Assembly (NCBI RefSeq): GCF_056712565.1
Contig: NZ_CM160072.1
Length of the DNA: 64,000 nt
Reading direction: 5' to 3' (one strand)
Both the position numbers and the translations under genes were made by a program. Shown one piece after another: positions 59,029 through 59,183 of this stretch (the stretch's first letter is position 1; each line of letters starts with the position of its first letter). Below the pieces are notes generated by a model. That model was not told where the DNA came from, made no database searches, and saw nothing but the letters and a program-made list of their open reading frames with translations.

Positions 59029-59183
59029 TGGGCACCTCGACAGTGGGGTTAAGAATGCCCTTACTTTACCATAGTTCTCGCTTAAACGCCGAGAACAGGG
59101 TGTCATGGCTGTCATATTGCCTGATCGCATATTCGTTATGCTATAGTAGCGCCCCCAATTTACCAGATGCTTAAAAAGTCGCC

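Follow-up and report, generated by a model that had tools for sequence, protein, structure and literature searches.

The zur-dusA junction of an Escherichia coli strain as an unoccupied dusA attachment site, probably ancestral to the yjbL/yjbM arrangement of K-12

Islands that target tRNA or tmRNA genes carry a replacement for the gene end that they displace, and the target stays functional; when such an island decays the foreign gene end is left fixed in the chromosome. In the case of dusA, a family of integrative elements with dusA-associated integrases (DAI) has been described that target the 5' end of this gene, replace it by element-supplied sequence with its own promoter, and can excise precisely with restoration of dusA (Farrugia et al., 2015, Nucleic Acids Res, PMC4482086). 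We have analyzed the junction between zur and dusA in a 64-kb stretch of DNA (hereafter the window, i.e., the whole stretch at its full length). What lies there is a vacant dusA attachment site with its ancestral surroundings, a difference between strains that is ordinary and of a known type.

The features of the junction are collected in Table 1. The ORF found in the window for zur has its ATG at the complement of 59026-59028, and the protein was identified by the NCBIfam model NF008646 with 364.9 bits (cut-off 167) covering residues 1-171 of 171. DusA gave full-length matches to TIGR00742 (580.9 bits, cut-off 397.2) and to NF008774 (560.3 bits, cut-off 269). The core of this family begins at residue 13, and the part that is exchanged in K-12 (see below) lies almost wholly outside it. 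The 921 bp around the junction, all the sequence that was tested, are 100% identical to E. coli ATCC 11775, in which PGAP calls the same zur and dusA pair separated by 155 bp. The first-pass annotation of this DNA, according to which both genes are directly adjacent and divergent at a distance of about 155 bp, is therefore correct. No integrase or element DNA was detected between zur and dusA in the window; dusA runs on uninterrupted from its native promoter and 5' end, the core of the attachment site is present and the spacer has no element ORF, as expected for an empty attB.

Table 1. Coordinates of the features at the zur-dusA junction (positions in the window).
Feature	Position	Strand	Description
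zur	58513-59028	minus	171 aa plus stop; ORF, NCBIfam NF008646 and PGAP in ATCC 11775
zur-dusA spacer	59029-59183	none	155 bp; colinear with other Escherichia spacers
zur-proximal 68 bp	59029-59096	none	Retained in both allele types; presumed zur promoter region
Native 133-bp segment	59097-59229	plus	Missing from K-12-type strains; putative dusA promoter and dusA codons 1-15
dusA promoter-like element	59139-59157	plus	TGcTATAGT (extended -10) followed by GC-rich AGCGCCCCC; putative function
dusA, tRNA dihydrouridine(20/20a) synthase	59184-60179	plus	331 aa, native short N-terminus; ATG at 59184
attB core ATGCTTGA	59238-59245	plus	Within dusA codons 19-21; unoccupied in the window

The promoter-like element was invariant in the alignment of six Escherichia sequences, and, translated in frame as LCYSSAP or as a near variant like AIVAPLF, it was found upstream of dusA in most of the native-type loci of Enterobacteriaceae. 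It resembles an extended -10 promoter followed by a GC-rich discriminator, like those of stringently controlled promoters. A scan of the zur-dusA spacer with the sigma-70 consensus returned 0 sites, so that it is by conservation only that the dusA promoter is assigned. The divergent promoter region that both genes would share according to the first-pass annotation is plausible; the conserved dusA -10 together with the 68 bp kept beside zur suggests two promoters placed back to back rather than overlapping ones. At a broader scale, TGcTATAGT plus AGCGCCCCC is kept upstream of native dusA across many genera of Enterobacteriaceae and is lost in K-12-type strains.

When the window was compared with the K-12-type strain C600 by blastn, two colinear blocks of about 97% identity were found, the left one ending at position 59096 (4616 of the C600 locus, L001) and the right one starting at 59230. 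Over the last 100 bp of the left block identity falls to 86%. Between the two blocks there are 133 bp in the window (59097-59229) and 1686 bp in K-12, so that in the K-12-type arrangement native sequence has been replaced, and not simply interrupted by an insertion. The view that yjbLM is an insertion in K-12-like strains, put forward in the first-pass annotation, is supported with regard to polarity, the outgroups described below indicating that the K-12 form is derived, and has to be refined with regard to the nature of the change. The K-12 segment has a GC content of 34.8% vs. approximately 52% in its flanks and contains, in this order, yjbL, yjbM, 360 bp of non-coding sequence and a different 5' end of dusA that is not homologous to the native one. 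The K-12 DusA has 345 aa, starts with MHGNSEMQKINQTSAMPEKTDVHWSGRFSVAP, and has a different N-terminus that is 14 residues longer. As a search for remnants, the 1686-bp segment was compared by blastn with the spacer, where the best match had E = 0.32, and with the whole 64-kb window, where there was no match at E <= 0.01; three DUF2713 (Pfam PF10897) alleles were also searched by tblastn against the whole window, and the coding sequence was not found (best E = 0.19). Hence, yjbL and yjbM, located between zur and dusA in K-12, are absent here as had been noted, and no homologous remnant was detected in the interval or in the window. A third allele is found in HH97 (L089 5933-6152), a K-12-type strain in which DUF2713 was secondarily deleted, with a spacer of 218 bp and the 345-aa dusA of the substitute type. 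HH97 keeps the substitute 5' end, so the deletion of DUF2713 does not regenerate the form found in the window.

In alignments, yjbL covers the N-terminal part and yjbM the C-terminal part of one and the same protein. Intact DUF2713 proteins are found in O157:H7 (318 aa), ECE204 (318 aa) and LR-62-2 (334 aa), with further homologues of up to 340 aa, and most other lineages have an unbroken gene (318-340 aa). In the zur-dusA interval of C600 there is a pseudogene annotated as 'DUF2713 domain-containing protein, frameshifted', and in other records there are yjbL and yjbM. What had been listed as two small genes is indeed present in K-12, but corresponds to the halves of one frameshifted DUF2713 pseudogene. 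DUF2713 alleles match PF10897 at 198-477 bits, and a search of 5.8 billion proteins gave 141 homologues, almost all of which are from E. coli. At the same locus, alleles compared in three genomes (L088 1752-2708, L086 1751-2707 and L087 1751-2755) had approximately 50% protein identity, with 54-73% nucleotide identity over the coding sequence and 86-100% over the adjacent non-coding DNA and dusA. There was no match to DUF2713 in 50,697 phage records, and no parent element carrying it is known. Seven matches labelled as plasmids turned out to be chromosome-sized or chromosome-derived records, and a plasmid origin was discarded. DUF2713 is contained in PHROG families 29005 and 28007 and in 11 IMG/VR contigs, in all 11 of which it is located at about 1 kb or less from the contig end, and in eight at the very end. 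We have also discarded that it is a phage gene, given that the end position and the K-12-type dusA stub followed by a phage arm correspond to host flank caught by the prophage prediction. None of the PADLOC defence models matched DUF2713, and its AlphaFold2 model (mean pLDDT 64.5) gave nothing below E = 0.38 when compared with the PDB by Foldseek. We consider it improbable that DUF2713 is not junk but working cargo subject to diversifying selection, which might act in phage exclusion or conflict; this reading draws on the restriction to E. coli, the ca. 50% allele identity confined to the coding sequence and the much-used phage site nearby. If it were true, B2-type strains would differ from other E. 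coli in DUF2713 function, and also in the regulation of dusA, by a native vs. an element-supplied promoter.

How the 5' end of dusA is exchanged can be seen in T309.Ta3, in which a native-type locus is broken by a prophage of approximately 38 kb. At the zur side the native sequence is identical up to ATGCTTGA and is followed by the prophage DNA TAGGATGTACCG; at the far side a tyrosine integrase gene is divergent to a 345-aa dusA, whose 5' end is homologous to that of K-12 from the start codon on. The K-12 dusA 5' end (L001 6212-6301) has 82-84% identity to a 90-bp stretch found in eight phage records belonging to seven phages, that include mEp460, 1720a-02, SKA5, Lys8385Vzw and PhiR40_1, and 82% to one Salmonella houtenae record in the same collection as the phages. 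In mEp460 the 90-bp stretch adjoins the integrase gene. Writing the junctions with a slash, attP (mEp460) is substitute 5' end-ATGCTCGA/TAGGATGTACCG (also written /TAGGATG), attB (the window) is native 5' end-ATGCTTGA/CTGGACGGAC, attL (T309.Ta3) is native 5' end-ATGCTTGA/TAGGATG and attR (T309.Ta3) is substitute 5' end-ATGCTCGA/CTGGACGGAC. The dusA of K-12 also reads substitute 5' end-ATGCTCGA/CTGGACGGAC, and since this junction matches the layout of the T309.Ta3 attR, the K-12 dusA has the structure of an attR. In the 11 IMG/VR proviral contigs this phage arm, ATGCTCGA/TAGGATGTACCG, comes directly after a K-12-type dusA stub, which indicates that the dusA 5' end can be exchanged repeatedly, and the K-12-type site is still in use. 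The core sequence is found in native-type and K-12-type loci, and sequenced genomes have prophages in both. The core at 59238-59245 is a live site of phage integration and a hot spot.

We have counted both alleles in 5426 complete E. coli genomes. The native 133 bp were present in 1122 of them (ca. 21%), once per genome and nearly invariant, and the K-12 segment was matched in 4303 (ca. 79%), over at least 80% of its length in 4042. The two figures add up to 5425 of the 5426 genomes, with both forms together in one or two at most, and no intermediate keeping both was seen in this set. Among the strains with the native form are ATCC 11775, NC101 and the ST131 strains EC958 and JJ2434, all of which we take to be phylogroup B2.

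The direction of the change was examined by a scan for Zur with one genome per species, which returned 80 loci (E. fergusonii was not among them). In five Escherichia loci, those of E. albertii, E. whittamii, Escherichia sp. E1V33, and E69 and SCPM-O-B-8794 (both titled E. coli), dusA is found at 154-155 bp from zur, and the alignment of their spacers with the window had a mean column identity of 95% with single-base gaps only. The native spacer is also found in a sixth locus, that of Escherichia sp. MOD1-EC7003, where the native dusA stub gives way to prophage DNA. Other genera have a longer zur-dusA interval, natively with a cupin-like gene and an outer-membrane-type protein of approximately 430 aa. 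The native dusA promoter motif and, as in the window, a short N-terminus of the form M-x-x-E-...-PA[HY] are found in about 60 loci of other Enterobacteriaceae genera. The long N-terminus starting with MH is sporadic (Salmonella enterica subsp. arizonae and diarizonae, Leclercia, Intestinirhabdus, Silvania and two others), and in every locus having it there is extra DNA beside dusA and the native promoter motif is absent. The native form being the one of the Escherichia outgroups and of the ca. 60 other loci, the form in the window is ancestral and that of K-12 derived. Overall, we consider it probable that the window has kept the ancestral, unoccupied state of the Escherichia zur-dusA region and that the K-12-type arrangement is the decayed scar of a dusA-targeting element. 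With this, the direction of a common polymorphism of the E. coli pangenome is settled, the reference strain K-12 carrying a fixed mobile-element scar.

In the surroundings of the junction we have found other differences between strains. The stretch 58396-58700, that comprises the yjbJ-zur intergenic region and the 3' end of zur, has 87-91% identity to K-12 compared with about 97% around it. The allele of the window is similar to those of E. whittamii, E1V33 and MOD1-EC7003, and the K-12 allele to those of E69 and SCPM-O-B-8794, a pattern suggesting an old polymorphism subject to recombination between species. We have ruled out that the divergence of the zur 3' end is a by-product of the insertion, both alleles being shared across species. 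At the other side, beyond qorA, the minus strand of the window (61809-64000) has a gene for a FAD-binding protein and the start of a MFS transporter gene; in ATCC 11775 an enoyl-CoA hydratase gene comes after these two. In the K-12-type HH97 and in the native-type T309.Ta3, qorA directly abuts dnaB. This abutment being found with both zur-dusA allele types, 61809-64000 is a separate accessory insertion, unlinked to the zur-dusA allele. Finally, the plasmid pO177A1 of E. coli SMN152SH1, an 89-kb record, contains a complete K-12-type dusA and a truncated pspG (L004 2140-3502) surrounded by phage tail-fibre, IS1 and integrase fragments, which is either chromosomal DNA captured beside the dusA attachment site or an assembly mosaic.

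The K-12 scar probably originated as follows. An integrative element targeting the 5' end of dusA would have recombined at the core ATGCTTGA, bringing with it a substitute 5' end that kept the gene intact. The integrase, the bulk of the element and the attL side, i.e., the native promoter and the dusA 5' stub, would have been lost in later deletions, leaving an AT-rich scar of 1.7 kb with a single cargo gene (DUF2713, the sum of yjbL and yjbM) and the substitute dusA 5' end. We infer this order of events, and also that it was this element that brought in DUF2713 as cargo. The K-12 DusA used in biochemistry has an N-terminus of about 29 residues derived from the element, and a non-native promoter. 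The scar origin is supported by the AT-rich block, that extends without a break between the left junction and the substitute 5' end, and by the left junction, that is the same in all the allele types. The same pattern (a substitute 5' end, small cargo, no integrase and no native promoter) is found in Salmonella arizonae and diarizonae, Leclercia, Silvania and others. On the other hand, the homology to the phage attP covers only 90 bp. A tblastn search of the K-12 segment for the T309.Ta3 integrase, run with a small word size and with composition correction switched off, had a best E = 0.33; a resemblance by eye between the start of the phage integrase and a K-12 ORF (L001 6023-6181) was not supported by tblastn and was discarded. 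The attL or native stub is essentially absent from K-12-type genomes, as follows from the counts given above and from the native segment being found once per genome. With neither an integrase remnant nor an attL or native stub, at least two deletions must be assumed. A search of the literature on yjbL and yjbM gave nothing about the origin of the segment.

In Leclercia, Silvania, an Enterobacteriaceae MAG, Enterobacter sp. and Intestinirhabdus (L034, L069, L041, L052 and L037, respectively) a dusA 5' end of the substitute type is accompanied by a HigB/HigA-like toxin-antitoxin pair. An integrase was found only in Intestinirhabdus, the other four loci having none, and the five are apparently parallel scars of small dusA-targeting islets.

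Two unrelated events could also be behind the K-12 arrangement, namely the insertion of DUF2713 by another route and a separate phage swap or aberrant excision at the 5' end of dusA, in which case DUF2713 would never have travelled as cargo of an element targeting dusA. A K-12 segment free of integrase remnants, phage genomes free of DUF2713 (with its IMG/VR and PHROG occurrences being host flank at prophage edges) and a phage homology limited to the 90 bp of the dusA 5' end would all fit such a double origin. Against it, the AT-rich segment is unbroken up to the substitute 5' end, the left junction is common to all allele types, and the analogous scars of other genera also have cargo beside a substitute 5' end. 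We regard this explanation as unlikely. Somewhat less likely still is that the window has a re-emptied site, whose ancestor carried an element that was lost by precise integrase-mediated excision restoring attB. Precise excision with restoration of dusA has been documented for dusA-specific elements (PMC4482086), and prophages do sit in the native-type site of T309.Ta3 and of Escherichia sp. MOD1-EC7003; however, an excision of this kind would need an intact attL, which K-12-type genomes have not retained, and it adds a step that parsimony does not require, even if a re-emptied and a never-occupied site look alike from the sequence alone. As for the K-12 arrangement being the ancestral one, with yjbL/yjbM simply deleted in the B2-like lineage of the window, the short form is indeed found in only ca. 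21% of the complete E. coli genomes and deletions in the interval do occur (HH97), but a deletion cannot create the 133 bp missing from K-12, which with their promoter motif and N-terminus are common to E. albertii, E. whittamii and many other genera, and the deletion derivative HH97 retains the substitute dusA 5' end, so that this possibility, which we consider extremely improbable, is already contradicted by the outgroup data.

We return then to a decayed scar in K-12 and an unoccupied site in the window, and to how they compare with the DAI elements. The K-12-type segment has one of their features, the replaced dusA 5' end, which has homologues in the attP arms of phages and in the attR of T309.Ta3. 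Two others are missing, given that no integrase gene adjoins the dusA 5' end and that there is an attR-like junction only instead of an attL/attR pair. With one feature present and two absent, the K-12-type segment is a decayed remnant rather than an element, and its excision as a circle that restores dusA is not to be expected when integrase and attL are both lacking. In the T309.Ta3 prophage and in mEp460 the integrase gene is divergent from dusA and adjacent to it, as expected for DAI elements. In the dusA-integrating phages of E. coli (mEp460, 1720a-02, Lys8385Vzw, SKA5 and PhiR40_1) the 90-bp substitute dusA 5' end of attP ends in the same ATGCTCGA core as K-12, but the yjbLM segment has no other phage DNA and these phages lack DUF2713. 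Compared with the islands that target tRNA or tmRNA genes, what is replaced at dusA is the 5' end of a protein gene, so that a promoter and N-terminal residues are exchanged and not the 3' end of an RNA. The window, in turn, corresponds to the empty target of the DAI elements, with no element at all.
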